A DNA stretch of 64,000 nt from Candidatus Latescibacterota bacterium (GCA_965248435.1 OZ252100.1:2592001-2656000), one strand, 5' to 3'; positions 49,772-57,929 are shown, numbered from the stretch's first letter. Made by a program: numbers and translations. Notes: generated by a model not told the origin, from the sequence alone.

Positions 49772-50890
49772 TCAACTTCCCTCCACGTAATTCCGAATAC
49801 CTTTCACAATCCTGTCTGCGTCCTTCTGACGGTTCTTGTGGAACCTCAGGGCCCACGCCTCGCCCATATCGTGCACATTGCGAATTTCCACCAGGATTTC
49901 TGCGCGCGCCTTGTTGTTTCTCAGGACGCCCAGGCTTCGGCCCTTTAGCTGCGCCGGGAGGTTCGGCTGATCCAGGGCCTTCTGCATGACCTGAGCAAAC
50001 TGTCGCGATTTCTGGTCCACCTTTCCCTTTCGCTTCAGGTAAATCGCGAGTGGACCTTTGGGTCTTTCCGGGCTGTTGTCCGCGTGGAGCGAGACAAAGA
50101 GACTCTTGCCCCGGCGCGCCTTCTTGAAGAATCGGTTTGCGATCCTCACACGCTGCGCCAGGTTTCGGCCGCCGGGCCTCACCCCCTCCGAATGCTTCCG
50201 GTTGATCCGTTCGTCATTATACACCTCATTCTGTTCGTGAACAAAGGTGATCACGGCCTGGAGATTCTCGCGAATGAGGTGGTTTGGACTGATCACCGTC
50301 AGCATTACATCTGCGCCAAGAAATTTCAACCTCTCATAGACCCGGAGGGCGATGTCGTAGACATACTCGTCCTCCACGACATAAACCGGCACCTTTCCGG
50401 CCCGATTCGAAACAATAGCGCCTGGGTCGATGCCTCCGTGTCCAGGATCGAGCACGATCTTCCAACCCGAAAGGGGAAGCCGCCGACTTCGGTTTCGCAC
50501 CAGCTTTGACCGAACCTCTGCATCGAGCGCCTTCAGGAGGGTGCGGGCATGCCGGTAATCTTTGAGCGGGCTCCAGGTGGATCGCTCCAGGTAGCGCTGG
50601 CTCTGCTGCGCCTGAACGCGAGGCTTTCGCCAATAGTAGGGGCCGTTCGGGGCCGCAATCTCATCCGGGTTATTGCCCAGTTTCAGAACCTGTCCGGGGT
50701 ACACCCGGTCGCCCTTGAGCTTGTTCAGGAGCTTGATCTCCTTGACGCTCATTTGATACAGACGAGCGATCGACCACAGAGAATCCCCCTTGCGCACCTC
50801 ATAAACGAGCGAAAGCCCCGCCGCTTCCCCCACAGCCATCTGAAGGAGCAGGAGTCCGAGACAGAGTCGGAGAATGGAGCGTGCGATCAT
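49772..50890 (-). CDS. LysM plus N-acetylmuramoyl-L-alanine amidase (Amidase_3)
   Basis: Signal peptide, YEVRKGDSLWSIA...LN..PGQ.L, LDPGHGGIDPGA, E, SLHAD, LVE. Confidence 0.88.
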   Translation of the reverse strand: MIARSILRLCLGLLLLQMAVGEAAGLSLVYEVRKGDSLWSIARLYQMSVKEIKLLNKLKGDRVYPGQVLKLGNNPDEIAAPNGPYYWRKPRVQAQQSQRYLERSTWSPLKDYRHARTLLKALDAEVRSKLVRNRSRRLPLSGWKIVLDPGHGGIDPGAIVSNRAGKVPVYVVEDEYVYDIALRVYERLKFLGADVMLTVISPNHLIRENLQAVITFVHEQNEVYNDERINRKHSEGVRPGGRNLAQRVRIANRFFKKARRGKSLFVSLHADNSPERPKGPLAIYLKRKGKVDQKSRQFAQVMQKALDQPNLPAQLKGRSLGVLRNNKARAEILVEIRNVHDMGEAWALRFHKNRQKDADRIVKGIRNYVEGS

Positions 50891-51053
50891 AAAGAAACGG
50901 GAACGAGAGATGGAGAGATCAGGTAGGGGTCTAAATAATAAGCGTTTACACCGCGATTGGCAAGAGATGCCCAGAACTCTGACAAACTGCCTGACAGAGG
51001 AAATACAAAACATTAGTATGTCAGGGGGGGTGTCTCGGACGCCGACTCAGGTT

Positions 51054-51088
51054 GGGAGTTTTCACCTTCTGGATGGGTGTTTTTCACC
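51054..51088 (+). promoter_or_regulatory. Tandem enhancer (UAS) boxes, PspF-type
   Basis: GGGA-N5-CACC (51054-66) and GGTG-N5-CACC (51076-88), 22 bp apart, about 100 bp upstream of the -24 box. Confidence 0.6.
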
Positions 51089-51178
51089 AACAGTTTCCTG
51101 GATCCAATCTTGAACATTTTTGCGTAAATTAAAGTATAGTCTATGACTTGTACTAATGTCACCGCTCGAGGAGCGGTC

Positions 51179-51194
51179 CGGCACAGATCTTGCG
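51179..51194 (+). promoter_or_regulatory. Sigma54 -24/-12 promoter of pspA
   Basis: CGGCAC-AGATC-TTGCG, with exact GG-N10-GC spacing. Confidence 0.85.
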
Positions 51195-51252
51195 ATGGAC
51201 GAAGGCTGTCCACCACATCGCAAGAATGAGATCTCAATCAGAGGAGTGACCC

Positions 51253-51930
51253 ATGTCCAGAGGAGTCTTTACACGCATGGCAGATATCGTCAAGGCCAAC
51301 ATCAACGACCTCTTGGACCGAGCCGAGGACCCGGAAAAGATGATTCGGCAGATCATCCTAGAAATGGAGGAGGCCGTGAACAAGGCCACGGCCTCCGTCG
51401 CAACGGCCGTGGCCAGTGAGAAGCGTCTGGAACGGCATTGTCTGGAGAAAAGAGACCAGGTTGATCTCTGGCAGAGCAAGGCAGAGCTTGCCGTCAAGTC
51501 GGGCGAAGACGACCTGGCCAGACGCGCCCTCGAGCGAAAGGGGGTCGCGGAACGTGCTGCAGCAGACCTTAGTGCAGCACTCGCCGAGAGCCAAACGACT
51601 TCGGAGCAATTGAAGCAGCAGTTGGCACAACTCAAGGCCAAACTCGACGAGGCACGTATGAGACAGGGCACGCTCATCGCGAGGAGCCAGGCCGCCGACG
51701 CCCGCAAGCGGATCGCCAAGGGCATGTCGGGAATCGGAAACGACGCCGTCTCCAATTTCGAGAGGTTTCGCCGGAGGGTGGAGACCGAAGAGGCCGAAGC
51801 CGATGCCCACGAAGAGATATCGGGCTCTCGGCCATCGCTCGAAGACGCGTTCGAGAAGCTCGAGCACAAGGGATCTGTCGAAGCTGAACTCAAGGCCCTG
51901 AAGCAGAAACTGGGACGGACCGATGAATGA
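51253..51930 (+). CDS. pspA: Phage shock protein A (PspA/IM30)
   Basis: GVFTRMADIVKANINDLLDRAEDPEKMIRQII.EME, EDDLARRAL, FER, VEAELKALK; GAGGAG RBS. Confidence 0.95.
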   Translation: MSRGVFTRMADIVKANINDLLDRAEDPEKMIRQIILEMEEAVNKATASVATAVASEKRLERHCLEKRDQVDLWQSKAELAVKSGEDDLARRALERKGVAERAAADLSAALAESQTTSEQLKQQLAQLKAKLDEARMRQGTLIARSQAADARKRIAKGMSGIGNDAVSNFERFRRRVETEEAEADAHEEISGSRPSLEDAFEKLEHKGSVEAELKALKQKLGRTDE

Positions 51931-52531
51931 GGTCCCCAGAATCGTCGGGGAGATCGTCGGCGAACTCCGCCGAATGGAGAACACGATCAAAGGGGTCTGG
52001 CCGTCGGGGCGACCGAAGATGGAAGCAGGATTGACCGGTCTACCCACACGACTTTCAGACCTCGCCGCAGATGGGAGCTGCGCCATGCGATACCTGTTCG
52101 GTTATCTTTTCAAGGGCGTTGGCGCCCTTGAATGCCTCGGCGGACTGATCATGATTGCCATCACCCTGACCCACCTTACCCAGGGGTGGGATCTTCAGGC
52201 GCTCAGCGTCGGCCTGTTCCTAGTCGCGACGGCCCAGCTCTTCTGGTTTGCAGGGCACCTCCTGCACCGGTCTGCCGATCGCCGTCGATATGCAAATGAC
52301 CAGAACCGCCTCCTCCGACTGGCCCGCGACAAAGGGGGAAGCCTGACAGTGCTCGAAGCGGCGACCGACGGTCGGATGACGGTCGACACGGCAGAAGAAA
52401 TCCTCCGTGAGCTCGCTGCACGCGGTCACGCAGAAGTCCGCGTGTCCGATTCCGGGCTCCTGGTTTACCGCATGACTGAAATCGAGCGCATTGAAGAGAA
52501 GGATCAAGCCAGGCCGGTGGATGAACTCTAA
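51923..52531 (+). CDS. Two-TM membrane protein with C-terminal winged-helix-like domain
   Basis: Overlaps the pspA stop (alternative start 52085); two hydrophobic segments; LLRLA..KGG.LTV.EAA....TVD.AEE.L.EL..RG.AE..VSDSG..VY. Confidence 0.7.
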   Translation: MNEVPRIVGEIVGELRRMENTIKGVWPSGRPKMEAGLTGLPTRLSDLAADGSCAMRYLFGYLFKGVGALECLGGLIMIAITLTHLTQGWDLQALSVGLFLVATAQLFWFAGHLLHRSADRRRYANDQNRLLRLARDKGGSLTVLEAATDGRMTVDTAEEILRELAARGHAEVRVSDSGLLVYRMTEIERIEEKDQARPVDEL

Positions 52532-52659
52532 TTATACAACCATTATGAGCTCTTCATGATGATCGACGAAACGGAACAGTAGAAGATCGACAGGCAGAGA
52601 AGCGTACTACATTGCAAACCTTATCTTTCTCTCCGACAACATCTCAAAAGGTGGCGACC

Positions 52660-52839
52660 ATGCTTGCGAAAATCCTTGGCATCCTGTTCGTGGTCATCGG
52701 CGGTGTTCTTGCGATCAGCGTCCTCTTCTTCCTCATCGGGTCGATTATCGGACTGTTGTGGCTCATGGTCAAGCTCCTCGTCCCGATCATTCTCCTCTAC
52801 ATCGGCTACAGGCTCCTCACCCGGGATTCGGAGTATTGA
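52660..52839 (+). CDS. Small two-TM membrane protein (PspG/LiaI-like size and topology)
   Basis: 59 aa, almost entirely hydrophobic; AAGGTG RBS. Confidence 0.75.
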   Translation: MLAKILGILFVVIGGVLAISVLFFLIGSIIGLLWLMVKLLVPIILLYIGYRLLTRDSEY

Positions 52840-52865
52840 CCGCGTATCAAAGGAGAACCGGATCA

Positions 52866-53441
52866 ATGATCGATGACTCCATACGCAGAACACTGAATGG
52901 GGACCGGAAGGCGTTTAAGGCCATCTACAATGCCCATCACGCTCACGTCCAGGCCTTTGTTACACGCCACACCACCGAATTCGACAGAGTGGAGGACCTG
53001 GTTCAGATCACCTTCCTGCGTGCCTTTCGGGCGCTGCATACCTTCCGGGGAGAGGCGGCGTTCTCAACGTGGCTCATACAGATTGCTCTGAACGTCTGTC
53101 GATCGGATCAGCGGGCCCTTCAGAGAGAAAGGGCACGCTTCTCGTGCAGTGGTGACCCTGAGGCAGAATCTCGTGCCGCATTCAATTTGCCTCGGGCACT
53201 TGAGCTTGACCCGGAGCAACTCTTGCAACAAAAGGAGCGCCGCGACCTCGTGATCCGGGAGATCAACAACCTCCCGGAGCGGTATCGAACCGCCGTATGG
53301 CTTCACTACTTCAGGGACCGGTCCTACGAAGAGATCACTCGCGTGCTTCACGTCCCCATCGGGACAGTCAAGACGTGGATCTTTCGCGCGCGGCAGCAGT
53401 TAAAGGGGCGGTTTCAGCGCATCGGGCTGCAGACCGGGTAG
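52866..53441 (+). CDS. ECF sigma factor (RpoE/SigW-like)
   Basis: EDLVQ.TF.RA, F.G.AAFSTWL.QIA.N, LP...R, SYEEI..L..P.GTVK..IFRAR; AAGGAG RBS. Confidence 0.9.
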   Translation: MIDDSIRRTLNGDRKAFKAIYNAHHAHVQAFVTRHTTEFDRVEDLVQITFLRAFRALHTFRGEAAFSTWLIQIALNVCRSDQRALQRERARFSCSGDPEAESRAAFNLPRALELDPEQLLQQKERRDLVIREINNLPERYRTAVWLHYFRDRSYEEITRVLHVPIGTVKTWIFRARQQLKGRFQRIGLQTG

Positions 53442-53472
53442 GCCTCTTCCTGATTACGGAAACTAGGGTATC

Positions 53473-55089
53473 ATGGATTCAGAAAAAGCGAAGGACCGCT
53501 CTCTTACTCCGACAGCTCAGATGGGGCTCCGTGATGACTTCCCCGAGTCGCGGAACGCGGAATCCAGAGAACGTTGTCTGGAGGGGGACAAGGCTGTAAA
53601 TGGAGATCGCCTTAAGGCCGGAGAAGCGGCCTATCAGGATGCACTGAGCGCAGATGAAGAATCTATTCACGCCCTTCACAATCTGGGAGTCGTCTACTAT
53701 ATGATGCAGGAATGGGAGCGGGCAATGAGTTGCTTCGAGTGCTTGGTGGAGTTGGACCCGATGGATATCGACTTTCGAATCAAGCTCGGCCTATCTGCAT
53801 TGAAGAACGGCCAGGTCGAGGTAGCTCACGAACAGTTCGAGATTGCTACAGAGGTCGATCCCGATCACCCTGGTGCCAGGTTCCAGCTGGCGCTCCTCCA
53901 CGCCGCGGGGGGCGCCCCGGGATCTGATGGTCGCCAGCTGGCAATCGAGGCCCTGAAGGAGGTACTCCGCACATCAGATGAGGGGCGACCCTGTGCCGAC
54001 CTCCAGCGAGCCTGTTTTCTGCTGGGAAGCTTGCTTGACGACCTGCCTGAAAACAGGGAAGAAGCCATCGTGGTTTACAGGCGCGGGCTGAAGGAAGACC
54101 CCCTCTTCGCTCCAGGTCACAACAATCTGGGCGTCCTCTTGATGGAGGACGGTCAGACGATCCCCGCGCTCGGTGAATTCAAAATCGCGATCCATCTGGA
54201 ACCCGACTACACGCTTCCCTATCGAAACCTCGCACGCCTCCTTTTTGACAGGATGGACGTCGCAGAGATGGAACAGGAATACACCTCCATCATCGATGAG
54301 TTCGGAGTCCGTTCTGCGTCCGTGCTGGCTAAGCTCTCAAGGGAACTCACCGATCTGGGCAGGGTCCAGGTCTACGAAAGCCTTTACACGCGCGGTCACC
54401 AGATAAAGAACCTTATGGGCATCGCGGGGAGTCGGACCCGTCGCTTCATTCGAAACCAGCCCCCCAGCGGCGATGATCTCGATGAACTGAAGGAGATCGC
54501 TGCCGAGCAGGAGCATATTTATGATGATTGGGTTGCCTACCTCAGATCCATGAAGCAGGAGACCATGAATCCCGGTCTCGTGGATGTAGCTCAACTCGCC
54601 GAAAGGGTCACGCGATCCCTTTCCAGCCAGAAGGGGGCGAAGGAAGTGAGCTTCAAATCAAAGCCCAAGATCCCTCAGGTCAAGGCCGATGCCGGGGCCC
54701 TTCATGAGGCCTTTACGAATCTGATCATGAATGCCCTGGAGGCTGCTCCTGAAGGCGGTAAGGTATCCGTCAGAACCGGATACGATGCGAATCAGAATAC
54801 GGTCTTCGTGGAAATCGAAGACGACGGTCCAGGAATTCCTGAAGCCGCGCAGAAGAAAATTTTTGACCCCGGATACTCCACGAAAGAAAAAGGGAGCGGT
54901 TACGGTCTGAGCATCGCTGCACGGATCGTGGCCGGGCATCGCGGGAACCTCCGAGCATCGAGCAACCAGGATTCCGGAACTGTTTTCAGAATGGACCTGC
55001 CGATCGATTTCGAAATCGCCCCTGAAGAGCGCGGCATTGCTTTCCAGGACCCTTCCTTTCGTCTGCAAGCCGAAGAGTTTGTCGACTGA
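53473..55089 (+). CDS. Soluble TPR-repeat histidine kinase
   Basis: ALHNLG, GHNNLG, PYRNLA TPRs; GHQIKN H-box; NLIMNALEA, EDDGPG, FDP.YSTK, GSGYGL; no TM segment seen. Confidence 0.88.
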   Translation: MDSEKAKDRSLTPTAQMGLRDDFPESRNAESRERCLEGDKAVNGDRLKAGEAAYQDALSADEESIHALHNLGVVYYMMQEWERAMSCFECLVELDPMDIDFRIKLGLSALKNGQVEVAHEQFEIATEVDPDHPGARFQLALLHAAGGAPGSDGRQLAIEALKEVLRTSDEGRPCADLQRACFLLGSLLDDLPENREEAIVVYRRGLKEDPLFAPGHNNLGVLLMEDGQTIPALGEFKIAIHLEPDYTLPYRNLARLLFDRMDVAEMEQEYTSIIDEFGVRSASVLAKLSRELTDLGRVQVYESLYTRGHQIKNLMGIAGSRTRRFIRNQPPSGDDLDELKEIAAEQEHIYDDWVAYLRSMKQETMNPGLVDVAQLAERVTRSLSSQKGAKEVSFKSKPKIPQVKADAGALHEAFTNLIMNALEAAPEGGKVSVRTGYDANQNTVFVEIEDDGPGIPEAAQKKIFDPGYSTKEKGSGYGLSIAARIVAGHRGNLRASSNQDSGTVFRMDLPIDFEIAPEERGIAFQDPSFRLQAEEFVD

Positions 55090-55108
55090 GCCTCCAACGC
55101 TGTAATCC

Positions 55109-56515
55109 ATGAAAACCAATATCCTCATTGCGGACGACCAGCCTGAGGTACTGAACGCGCTCTCACGAAGCCTTCAGTCCGAAGAGCGAAGTGTACACGC
55201 CTTCCGCAGTGGTAGAGAAGCTGTCGCCTTCCTCCGCAGGCACGCCTCAGAAGTGGACCTGGCCATTCTCGACCTGGATTTCGGACCCGACGAGCCTGAC
55301 GGTCTGGAGATCCTCAGACAGACGCGAGAGCTGGCACCCGACCTCCCAGTGATCATCCTGACCGGAAAAGGGACGATCGACACCGCAGTCTCCGCGCTCA
55401 GACTCGGGGCCACCGATTTTATCGAGAAAGATTTCTATCTGGATGAGAAGCTGGAACTTGGACTCGAGAAACTCGATCGGATGCTCTCGGTCCTCAGAGA
55501 AAATGCCGAACTTCGCGAGCAGGTGGACAGTCTGGATCGTGAAAATCGATTCTACAGGGACGAGTTCGGCAGTCGTTACCAGACGGTCAGCGCCAGCCCG
55601 GCCATGCAGAACGTGCTGCAGCAGGCCGAACGAATCGCCTCCATCCCCCGGCCCGTCCTGGTTCTGGGGGAACGTGGTACGGGAAAAGAGCTTGTGGCCG
55701 GCGCAATCCATTTCGGTGGCGTTCGCAAAACCCGCCCGTTCGTAAAGGTCAACTGTGCAGCATTGTCCTCCACCCTGCTGGAAAGTGAACTCTTCGGACA
55801 CGAAAAAGGCGCCTTTACTGGCGCCGATGAGGCCCGTCCCGGCCGGTTCGAGGCTGCGGACGGGGGGACCCTCTTTCTGGACGAAATTGCGAACACCTCT
55901 CCGGAGTTTCAACAGAACGTCCTCAGGGCCATCGAGTACAACGAAGTCCAGAGGGTGGGCAGCCCGAAGCCCATCCCCGTCGATGTACGGATTATCACTG
56001 CAACCAACGCGGACCTGGAGCAGGAAATCGCGAGTGGAAAGTTCCGGGAAGACCTCTACGACCGGCTCCGGTTCGAAGTCATCCGCATTCCCCCCATCAG
56101 AGAACGGCGTGAAGATATCAGGCCGCTCGCCGAATTTTTTGTTGCCGAAATCAGCAAAGAAGTCGCGGGTCCCATCGCGCACGCCATCTCGAAGGCTGCG
56201 TTTGACCGACTACTCGCCTACTCCTGGCCAGGGAACGTTCGTGAGCTCAAGTTCGCCGTCGAACGCGCAGCCTGCGTTGCCGCGTCCGATACCATCCAGC
56301 CTGGAGACCTCCCTCCCGAAGTCGCCGGCGAAACGCCTGACGCATCCGAACAGGGCTTTGAAAAGCAGGTCGAAACCTTCGAACTCGGGCTGCTCAGACA
56401 AGCCTTGCGAAGTGCAGGGTGGAACCAGAGGCAGGCAGCGTCACATCTCGGACTCAGCTATGATCAGTTTCGCCATCTCTATCGGAAGTACCACCTCGAC
56501 CGCGAAAAACCGTAG
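55109..56515 (+). CDS. Sigma54-dependent activator: receiver domain fused to PspF-like AAA+ and HTH
   Basis: REC (ADD, ILDL, LTG, IEK); GERGTGKEL, GAFTGA, FLDE, WPGNVREL; C-terminal LGLSYDQFR. Confidence 0.92.
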   Translation: MKTNILIADDQPEVLNALSRSLQSEERSVHAFRSGREAVAFLRRHASEVDLAILDLDFGPDEPDGLEILRQTRELAPDLPVIILTGKGTIDTAVSALRLGATDFIEKDFYLDEKLELGLEKLDRMLSVLRENAELREQVDSLDRENRFYRDEFGSRYQTVSASPAMQNVLQQAERIASIPRPVLVLGERGTGKELVAGAIHFGGVRKTRPFVKVNCAALSSTLLESELFGHEKGAFTGADEARPGRFEAADGGTLFLDEIANTSPEFQQNVLRAIEYNEVQRVGSPKPIPVDVRIITATNADLEQEIASGKFREDLYDRLRFEVIRIPPIRERREDIRPLAEFFVAEISKEVAGPIAHAISKAAFDRLLAYSWPGNVRELKFAVERAACVAASDTIQPGDLPPEVAGETPDASEQGFEKQVETFELGLLRQALRSAGWNQRQAASHLGLSYDQFRHLYRKYHLDREKP

Positions 56516-56557
56516 TCCCCTTTAGAATCCCGAGAAGGTCACAGCGAAAGGTTGAAT

Positions 56558-57490
56558 GTGAACGCCATGGTGCTCCAGGAGGTAAATGAGCCCCTCCAGC
56601 CGTGCGACCTCCCAAGCCCTGGCGATGGACAAATCCTGATCAAGATTGGCGCGTGCGGCGTATGCAGGACCGACCTGCACGTCCGCGATGGCGATCTCAA
56701 ACAGCCAAAGCCCCCCTCGTTCTGGGTCACGAAATCGTGGGTACGGTCGTAGAGGTTGGAAAAGAGGTGGAGGATATGTCGGCGGGGCAGCGCGTCGGTG
56801 TGCCCTGGCTGGGCTGGACCTGCGGATCCTGTGGCTACTGTTCGTCAGGCCGTGAGAACCTCTGCGAGAAGGCAAGGTTTACCGGCTATCAGATCGACGG
56901 CGGCTATGCGGAATATGCAGTCGCCGACCATCGCTACTGCTTCCCGATTGCCGGAGCGCAATCGGACTCGGAGACCGCCCCCCTGCTTTGTGCCGGGCTG
57001 ATTGGCTATCGCGCCCTGCGAATGGCTGGAGATGCCCGAAGGCTCGGTCTCTACGGCTTTGGCGCCGCGGCCCATATCGTCGCGCAGGTCGCCGTCTACG
57101 AAGAAATTTGCGAGAGAACTGGGCGCGTCGTGGGCGGGCGACTCCAACGAGAGCCCTCCTGAGAGCCTGGATGCGGCCATCATATTCGCGCCCGTGGGCG
57201 CCCTCGTCCCGGTCGCCCTAGAGGCGGTCGACAAAGCGGGCATCGTCGTCTGTGCCGGCATCCACATGTCGGAGATCCCGGCATTCCCTTACGACCTGCT
57301 CTGGGAAGAGCGGTCCATCAAATCGGTCGCCAACCTGACGCGTGCCGACGGGACCGAATTCCTTGACCTGGCCCCTCGAATTCCTATCAAGACCCGGGTC
57401 CACACCTACCCGCTGGACCACACGAACATCGCCCTCGAGGCACTTCGGGACGGAAGTTTCGAGGGCGCGGCCGTCCTCCTTCCGACGCAT
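56558..57490 (+). pseudogene. Zinc-dependent alcohol dehydrogenase, frameshifted
   Basis: CGVCRTDLH, GHEIVG, CxxCxxC and GFGAAA, and the C-terminus, lie in three different ORFs; frameshift at the C-run near 56711 and an apparent deletion near 57103. Confidence 0.85.
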
Positions 57491-57509
57491 TCAAATCAGC
57501 TTCCCCCAT

Positions 57510-57929
57510 CTACCTCTGCAGAAATTCGATCAGGACGCCGTCCGGACCCTGCGCAACGGCCAGACCCGGCGAGTCTGGCGGAGGTGCAGGCTCGGAAAGG
57601 AACGTGACCCCTTTTTCCTTGAGCTCGCCGACCGTCTCCCTTATATCTTTCAGGTAGAAACTCAGCCAGCGAACACCCGACCTGAGATCTTCTTGAGGCG
57701 GAGGCGGCGGGGATTCGATCTCCATCAGCTTGATCACCGTCTCGCCCGCCCGAACCCTCACTTGATGAAATCCCCGGGGGGCGAGTCCGAACTTCGTCGC
57801 CACCTCGTCTGAGATGTTCGTCTCGTGGACGATCTCCAGGCCCAGGCATTCGTGATAGAAATGAAGCGACGCTTCGAAATCGCTGCACATAATCGCTACA
57901 TCGACGACGGGCTGAGCGAACTCCATCAT
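57510..57929 (-). CDS. VOC/glyoxalase family protein
   Basis: VAI.CSD.EASLHFY..LGL, KLME, GPDG.LIEF; AAGGAG RBS. Confidence 0.85.
   Translation of the reverse strand: MMEFAQPVVDVAIMCSDFEASLHFYHECLGLEIVHETNISDEVATKFGLAPRGFHQVRVRAGETVIKLMEIESPPPPPQEDLRSGVRWLSFYLKDIRETVGELKEKGVTFLSEPAPPPDSPGLAVAQGPDGVLIEFLQR

Follow-up and report, generated by a model that had tools for sequence, protein, structure and literature searches.

A class-wide variant of sigma-54 phage-shock regulation in Candidatus Latescibacterota, with a probable two-component switch on a PspF-like activator

In a 64,000-nucleotide stretch of a Candidatus Latescibacterota genome (GCA_965248435.1, OZ252100.1:2592001-2656000; hereafter the window), an open reading frame (ORF) listing places six co-directional, tightly packed plus-strand genes within 51052-56515, behind two enhancer-like palindromes and a sigma-54 promoter. 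They encode the phage-shock protein PspA, two membrane proteins, an extracytoplasmic function (ECF) sigma factor, a soluble tetratricopeptide repeat (TPR) histidine kinase and a sigma-54 activator that carries a receiver (REC) domain. The locus is a real, conserved, class-wide variant of sigma-54 phage-shock regulation, and we consider it probable that it constitutes a self-contained phage-shock-type operon, in which a two-component-switched, PspF-like activator drives pspA via sigma-54. Phosphotransfer between kinase and activator, binding of the activator to its sites, co-transcription with positive feedback, and an envelope-stress trigger are what we infer about its operation.

An earlier note on this DNA had described the same run of promoter and genes, all six of which were found, and its starting coordinate, 51054, falls within the first of two enhancer-like palindromes. 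From pspA to the activator gene the spacing is close: an 8-nt overlap joins the pspA stop to the start of the next gene, and gaps of 128, 26, 31 and 19 nt follow. A scan listed no terminator-like site on the plus strand between pspA and the activator, the sole plus-strand match (51063-51079) being upstream of the promoter and inside the enhancer region. The host metagenome-assembled genome (MAG; 5.67 Mb, 97.5% complete) has rpoN and 21 sigma-54 activators.

Promoter, activator and kinase

The sigma-54 (-24/-12) promoter, cGGCAC-AGATC-TTGC (51179..51193, plus strand), was identified by box search and conservation, and sits about 60 nt 5' of the ATG of pspA (PspA/IM30, 225 amino acids (aa); 51253..51930, plus strand; PF04012, E 7e-48). 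With a box defined by GG and GC 10 nt apart within TGGCAC-N5-TTGC, one lies upstream of pspA in 27/27 loci, in 37/38 at no more than one mismatch, and in 45/45 at no more than two; the genome-wide chance rate per 300 nt per strand is 0.043 at no more than two mismatches and 0.005 at no more than one. No second box recurs consistently within the clusters, and the repeated matches at +146 and +413 are conserved pspA coding sequence.

Farther upstream, the alignment of relatives has a constant order: two palindromes 21-22 nt apart, an AT-rich stretch, and then the sigma-54 box. In the window, the first enhancer, or upstream activating sequence, is the imperfect palindrome TTGGGAGTTTTCACCTT (51052..51068, plus strand), which departs from TTGGTG-N5-CACCAA at several positions and aligns with the upstream member of the relatives' tandem TGG-N9-CCA pair. 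The second, TGGGTGTTTTTCACCAA (51074..51090, plus strand), has one mismatch to TTGGTG-N5-CACCAA, and its position is kept in the alignment. Measured centre to centre, the two are 22 nt apart, and they precede the box by about 100 and 122 nt. Across 45 loci, exact TGG-N9-CCA sites at 40-200 nt upstream of the box number at least two in 28, one in 12 and none in five, where chance would give 0.045 per 160 nt. Genome-wide, the combination of a sigma-54 box (no more than one mismatch) with an enhancer site (no more than one mismatch) 60-250 nt upstream occurs at the pspA promoter alone. The half-sites read TGGTG/CACCA in the window's taxonomic order and TGGCG/GGCCA in the distant family, and the activator's recognition helix shifts in parallel between the two clades, from SYDQFRH to TYDRFRH. 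The covariation amounts to a single split, and is therefore weak but consistent evidence. From these sequence patterns, the activator presumably acts on the two palindromes.

The activator itself (468 aa; 55109..56515, plus strand; Pfam Response_reg, Sigma54_activat and HTH_8) has the architecture of the NtrC class: a full receiver, an AAA+ domain with GAFTGA, a Fis-type helix-turn-helix (HTH), and a kinase gene ending 19 nt upstream. Its Response_reg domain spans residues 5-113, in a position where PspF has no N-terminal regulatory domain at all. Across 27 orthologues, the receiver keeps D9/D10, D55, T85 and K107, and in the alignment D55 matches the phospho-acceptor of Aquifex NtrC1. The closest solved structures are those of NtrC4/NtrC1, NifA and ZraR (PDB 1ojl), then PspF.

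Behind the receiver, the protein resembles PspF. Its top NCBIfam model is PspF TIGR02974, at 357 bits, below the cut-off of 443.55, with NtrC at 347; against the second PspF model, NF008622, it reaches 302 bits, below the cut-off of 529, and it also scores highly against the AtoC and ZraR models. With E. coli PspF as query, the activator is the best match among the genome's 21 (267 bits versus 228 for the next; 44% identity over 311 aa), and the mutual best match between the two is drawn from a small comparison set. The alignment extends through the HTH, where 13 of 27 residues around the recognition helix are identical; the recognition helices read LSYDQFRHLYRKY versus LTYHQFRALLKKH, and the DNA-binding helix aligns as WNQRQAASHLGLSYDQFRHLYRKYHL versus YNQKRAAELLGLTYHQFRALLKKHQI. 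A PspF-type recognition helix occurs in none of the other 20 activators. A homologue search with the HTH region returned nine close relatives only and is not informative for other phyla. At the same time, PspF Trp56, which lies in the loop bound by PspA (PMC6003685, PMC3791423), aligns with activator Lys207, a position held in 27/27 orthologues by K, R, S or A and in none by an aromatic residue. Because of the alignments and the replacement of Trp56, the most fitting description of the activator is that its core is PspF-like, that it bears a receiver domain, and that it lacks the known PspA contact. The label of a receiver-bearing PspF, given to it in the earlier note, is thus apt as regards the best match to E. 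coli PspF and its extension through the HTH, at scores under the NCBIfam PspF cut-off.

The kinase (538 aa; 53473..55089, plus strand; Pfam TPR and HATPase_c) is the second element of the proposed switch. H309, N416/N420, D450-G452-G454 and G474-G476-G478 (the last three being the N, G1 and G2 boxes) are invariant in 13 orthologue sequences. Its AlphaFold2 (AF2) model, at a mean predicted local distance difference test (pLDDT) score of 78.9, has 13 helices at 29-260 (about six TPR pairs), a connector helix, a dimerization and histidine phosphotransfer (DHp) domain at 304-360 (helices 304-328 and 336-360), a catalytic and ATP-binding domain at 368-510, and a disordered tail. The best NCBIfam matches of the catalytic half are AtoS and ZraS, the partners of sigma-54 regulators, with none at the equivalog cut-off, and the full-length NtrB and CreC models align over the H-box. 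The model contains no transmembrane (TM) helix. With a kinase that lacks a membrane segment, the signal most likely arrives by way of a protein bound to the TPR domain, either PspA or the membrane protein encoded directly behind pspA, though this step is a guess.

Conservation of the cluster and its variable genes

The core of the cluster is PspA, the membrane protein encoded directly behind it (termed here TM2wH, for two TM helices and a winged helix), the TPR kinase and the REC activator. These four stand in the same gene order on the same strand in 28/28 genome loci that hold a kinase orthologue (42-63% identity). The 28 loci came from an alignment-based scan, where a scan with a single kinase sequence found none, and they overlap with 19 separately collected loci. 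Of 36 metagenome loci reached via TM2wH, 32 showed PspA, 23 the kinase and 15 the activator; the rest of the contigs end first, and no differing gene order was seen in the 36. Kinase orthologues occur in 54/61 relatives and, at E no greater than 1e-60, in 98/168 genomes of the phylum, being concentrated in three families of one class (f1, 20/21; f2, 28/31; f3, 49/76) and found in 0/39 genomes of the other eleven families. The earlier note had proposed that all six genes be sought as a conserved neighbourhood; the four core genes bear this out in 28/28 loci and in the metagenomes, and the ECF gene, in 19/28, does not.

Outside the class, a 12-genome phylum reached via one locus (L122) has no PspA match, and no systematic search was made for analogous arrangements of non-orthologous genes. 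One deltaproteobacterial MAG has an ordinary divergent, REC-less pspF-pspA together with a PspA-flotillin pair, and the PspA orthologues of Latescibacterota family f9 are not accompanied by the cluster.

The canonical phage-shock regulators were not found. PspB (PF06667) and PspC (PF04024) have no Pfam match in the whole genome, and no activator in it scores above the PspF equivalog cut-off. A canonical pspF or pspBC elsewhere in the genome, which the earlier note had named as a source of regulation that would contradict its proposal, was therefore not found genome-wide, and its observation that pspB, pspC and Lia-type genes are not recognisable agrees with the missing PF06667 and PF04024 matches, the sigma-54 AAA+ regulator and the soluble kinase. 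The window's PspA matches PF04012 at 163.5 bits (gathering threshold 33.9; residues 4-219). Its best NCBIfam model is TIGR02977, the proteobacterial PspA, at 184.9 bits, below the cut-off of 242.95 and above the score of the LiaH model, and it is the only match in the genome to E. coli PspA (37% identity). A second PspA paralogue (C1:2907059-2907739; L003:8057-8758), which E. coli PspA does not match at E 1e-5, stands in the arrangement YbjN/CesT-like - PspA - DUF4178 beside a spermine synthase-domain gene, and this fits the CesT/Tir-PspA polyamine context of PMC11237479.

TM2wH (202 aa; 51923..52531, plus strand) belongs to no Pfam or NCBIfam family and lies directly behind pspA wherever the locus was examined, in genomes and metagenomes alike. 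In its AF2 model (pLDDT 82.5), an N-terminal helix precedes two TM helices, and residues 120-184 form a cytoplasmic winged helix. A fold search gave generic winged-helix matches only (MarR, ArsR, TFE and one ESCRT-II subunit), all at E above 0.003, and in the Protein Atlas the protein falls into unnamed clusters only, the nearest named being MarR/IclR-type winged-helix families. Distant homologues of the winged helix alone are not encoded next to PspA, and some of them are joined to TM2 domains in one protein. The ESCRT-II entry is human chain 3cuq_A (59 residues, root-mean-square deviation 1.4, 27% identity, E 6.6e-3), a match that is curious because PspA is an ESCRT-III relative, but too weak to serve as evidence.

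The other membrane protein, a two-TM protein of 59 aa (52660..52839, plus strand), has its ATG at 52660 set by orthologue comparison, and is conserved, with the start M(L/F)AKILG, in the window's taxonomic order and in L077. It was considered as a LiaI or LiaF equivalent and rejected, the similarity being insignificant (E 0.25-0.41; LiaF-TM E 0.4). Most relatives carry, after the TM2wH gene, one to three genes for small proteins (65-100 aa) in which a single TM helix precedes the motif RL..LE.RLTDIQDVMI.IDEKL (for example L057:4462-4891, L071:8264-8536 and L036:7882-8843); the family is unnamed, and the motif recurs at the end of a TM2-domain protein and of a 195-aa double-TM protein. Homology of these one-TM proteins to PspB is not supported, with no Pfam match and an hhalign probability of 1.2% against E. 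coli PspB, which they resemble in layout only. In the window, 52532-52600, the TM2wH frame past its stop, reads ...ELFMMIDETEQ*, faintly and not significantly like the ...DVMIxIDEKL ends; it may be a relic of a deleted small-protein gene.

The ECF sigma factor (about 191 aa, plus strand; Sigma70_r2 and r4) likely occupies 52866..53441, within an ORF open from 52758, orthologues aligning from residue ~42 of ORF 52758-53441. Its best NCBIfam matches are RpoE- and SigW-like, under their cut-offs. The 19 of 28 genome loci that hold the gene all belong to the window's taxonomic order, and it is absent from all nine more distant-family loci. This confinement makes it accessory rather than core; the ECF tier of the circuit proposed in the earlier note stands insofar as the gene is present in the cluster, and falls as a core element. 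Neither the window nor the relatives yielded a recognisable anti-sigma gene; downstream of the ECF gene, relatives encode an NfeD-like membrane protein, and no conserved ECF promoter motif was seen 5' of the small TM or ECF genes.

Between the ECF and kinase genes, 17/19 ECF-bearing loci hold an NfeD-like and flotillin (Band_7) pair, and many relatives in the window's taxonomic order also carry a TM2-domain protein. An ECF-dependent promoter for the NfeD/flotillin genes was considered and discarded; the intergenic regions carry a sigma-70-like TTGAC(A/G)-N17-TAT instead. The relatives' one-TM proteins, TM2-domain protein and NfeD/flotillin genes were all undetected by tblastn in the window's genome, and the window is for this reason read as a reduced version of the cluster. 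In one relative (G038; L043:7791-9068), an ISL3-family transposase is inserted between the TM2wH and ECF genes.

On the flanks of the window's cluster, a LysM-amidase gene (49772-51013) is divergent from pspA, and a zinc alcohol dehydrogenase gene (56552-57607), downstream of the activator, is split across three frames, with ADH_N and ADH_zinc_N in different frames. The latter is either a pseudogene or an assembly error.

Proposed mechanism and competing explanations

In the circuit that we favour, the cytoplasmic TPR kinase would phosphorylate Asp55 of the receiver-bearing, PspF-like activator, and the phosphorylated activator would assemble on the two palindromic enhancers and then open the sigma-54 promoter. 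That promoter would drive pspA and the coupled genes, namely those for TM2wH, the 59-aa protein and, here, the ECF sigma factor. The kinase and activator genes are probably in the same transcript, an arrangement that would give positive feedback. PspA and its membrane partner would be the effector, binding and stabilising damaged membrane, and the ECF sigma factor would be an addition peculiar to the lineage, through which the output may reach other promoters.

Several observations weigh against this picture. Pfam HisKA is not called in the kinase at E no greater than 0.01, and the H-box, GHQIKNLMG, lacks the usual proline. Kinase and activator would need to be expressed before induction, and a scan identified no promoter for them. 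The window is among the 5/45 loci without an exact TGG-N9-CCA, both of its sites being imperfect. The covariation of HTH and enhancer counts as a single evolutionary event, and related genomes do not constitute independent samples. Finally, in a genome of the same genus, the pspA gene keeps part of the promoter region without a local activator, a case to which we return below.

We think it unlikely, nonetheless, that the operon works as in E. coli, with PspA silencing the AAA+ domain of the activator and releasing it under membrane stress, and with the receiver and kinase supplying a secondary or unrelated input. Such regulation would accord with the PspF-like AAA+-HTH portion, which is the best match both ways in limited comparisons and has a common recognition helix, with a PspA of the proteobacterial rather than the LiaH type, and with negative feedback by PspA as a general trait of the E. 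coli system (PMC9239133). Set against it are the loss of an aromatic residue at the Trp56 position in every activator orthologue, within the very loop that PspA binds (PMC6003685, PMC3791423), and the retention across three families of a full receiver and an always-adjacent kinase with intact catalytic residues, a conservation that argues for these as the main switch.

If the receiver and kinase are the main switch, one may ask what the kinase reads. The C-termini of two proteins of the cluster are acidic and conserved in the window's taxonomic order, AEEF[IV][DE] in the kinase (residues 513-538) and PVDEL in TM2wH (196-202), and in the distant family both are either different or absent. They recall the EEVD tails to which TPR co-chaperones bind, and at the level of sequence they suggest TPR-tail recognition. 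One could imagine that a TPR clamp like that of chaperones lets the soluble kinase monitor the condition of the PspA machinery: the acidic tail of the kinase would auto-inhibit its own TPR domain, the TM2wH tail would displace it when PspA engages damaged membrane, and the membrane-anchored winged helix would be a nucleator for the ESCRT-III-like PspA. We regard this whole scheme, clamp and nucleator together, as speculative and improbable. Were it true, PspF ancestrally was, or can become, a phospho-switch, and the cluster would embody a new principle of membrane-stress sensing.

Returning to the two-component circuit proposed above, its promoter might instead be served by another of the genome's 20 activators, the local pair regulating something else. 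The natural deletion in the same-genus genome G001 (4.1 Mb; L217) bears on this. That genome is collinear with the window on both sides, without the segment equivalent to 52843-56557 (ECF, kinase and activator); it is also missing most of the TM2wH gene (comparison with window positions 52014-56557) and keeps pspA and the 59-aa gene. It has no activator orthologue, the best match being 42% identical, and no kinase orthologue. Upstream of its pspA it retains enhancer site 1 and a near-intact but weakened box, CGGCAC-N5-CTGC (TTGC to CTGC), with both the -12 element and enhancer site 2 degraded. This promoter is either a decaying relic or one that another activator can serve; the pattern fits a recently orphaned promoter and leaves room for another activator. 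In the window's genome, however, a similar recognition helix is found in no other activator, and the local activator co-occurs with the promoter at every locus examined. The sole REC-less activator found there (329 aa, AAA+ and HTH; C1:4460199-4462476; L214:2700-4977, minus strand) has a different HTH and an adjacent sigma-54 target of its own: it is directly upstream of a perfect TGGCACACTGTTTGC box that precedes a 293-aa sigma-70-family factor (regions 1.2, 2, 3 and 4), which, from this arrangement, may be a sigma-54-dependent alternative sigma gene. On balance, service by another activator is very unlikely.

In B. subtilis, SigW controls pspA and a flotillin operon. That the ECF sigma factor is likewise the real driver of pspA, the two-component pair being present by linkage only, hardly deserves credence: its gene is inside the cluster and its best NCBIfam matches include RpoE and SigW, but the 9/28 loci without it still keep the sigma-54 box, enhancer, kinase and activator, which excludes it as the core driver; in addition, an ECF-type promoter was not seen upstream of pspA, the relatives' flotillin genes carry their own sigma-70-like promoter, and the genome has no other enhancer and sigma-54 pair for the activator.

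Relation to known phage-shock and sigma-54 circuits

The Psp/IM30/ESCRT-III machinery is a universal membrane-repair system, and the control of its induction is known for few model phyla: PspA-PspF titration, LiaFSR, SigW, and ClgR/MprAB. In this context, the Latescibacterota locus is a conserved natural hybrid: it retains the sigma-54 promoter and, for DNA binding and ATPase activity, a core like that of PspF, and trans-inhibition by PspA appears, as the sequences read, to have given way to a receiver and its dedicated TPR kinase in the cytoplasm. It thereby bears on the loss or gain of a regulatory domain by PspF. The host lineage is uncultured; the cassette, at six genes with a defined promoter and enhancer, is compact and could be rebuilt in E. 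coli to study membrane-damage sensing by a soluble kinase.

Published Psp contexts include a PspF that is REC-less, or that has ACT or PAS domains in some Gammaproteobacteria, and two-component contexts with membrane kinases and REC-HTH regulators (PMC9239133, PMC11237479). Reported PspA neighbours include band-7/flotillin, CesT/Tir and spermine synthase genes (PMC9239133, PMC11237479), and a PspF-like activator of Desulfovibrio is without an N-terminal domain (PMC4641369). A REC-bearing sigma-54 activator and TPR kinase beside pspA are not described in the main-text passages of the two surveys, PMC9239133 and PMC11237479; the supplement and web app of the latter, which lie outside the comparison, may list one. 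In the library searched, no paper mentions Latescibacteria together with PspA, and a further search brought up nothing closer. Within that scope, the remark in the earlier note that the architecture is not recognised from described Psp variants holds, and a two-component, PspF-like wiring of the Psp response is apparently undescribed.

Among systems with related parts, ZraSR-ZraP and AtoSC are the nearest relatives of the kinase's catalytic half (AtoS/ZraS), and the regulator scores highly against the AtoC, ZraR and NtrC models; no equivalog cut-off is reached, and here the input is a cytoplasmic TPR domain, not a periplasmic one, with PspA as the output. ZraSR responds to envelope stress and has a single output, which is chaperone-like. 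In M. tuberculosis, one envelope-stress circuit, MprAB-SigE-ClgR-pspA, links a pspA operon to an ECF sigma factor and a two-component system. Its parts are dispersed, there is no sigma-54, and the direct pspA regulator is ClgR, whereas here the parts form one cluster with a sigma-54 promoter; MprAB and ClgR are both named as Psp regulators in PMC11237479. For a possible ECF second tier, the HrpR/HrpS to HrpL cascade offers a model, as an AAA+-activated sigma-54 promoter there transcribes an ECF sigma factor without a dedicated anti-sigma (PMC3105312). It differs in its type III secretion output, and co-transcription of the ECF gene in the present cluster is putative, suggested by spacing.

In the B. 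subtilis Lia system, the response regulator acts on a sigma-A promoter. LiaFSR-LiaIH shares with the present locus the two-component control of a PspA homologue and a small membrane protein, with the regulators in the locus (PMC11237479, PMC9239133). It relies on a membrane HAMP kinase, the inhibitor LiaF and a regulator that joins REC to a winged HTH (PMC11237479), whereas here the kinase is a soluble TPR protein and the regulator a sigma-54 AAA+ activator.

Set beside pspABCDE of E. coli and its regulator PspF, the present operon differs in the receiver domain, in the place of the activator gene, last in the operon instead of divergent, in the cognate soluble TPR kinase, in the absence of a Trp56 equivalent and of PspB and PspC matches, and in membrane partners of other families. 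Nonetheless, it is with E. coli that it shares a sigma-54 promoter and upstream enhancers driving pspA, and an AAA+ domain and Fis-type HTH that are, among those compared, the closest to its own.

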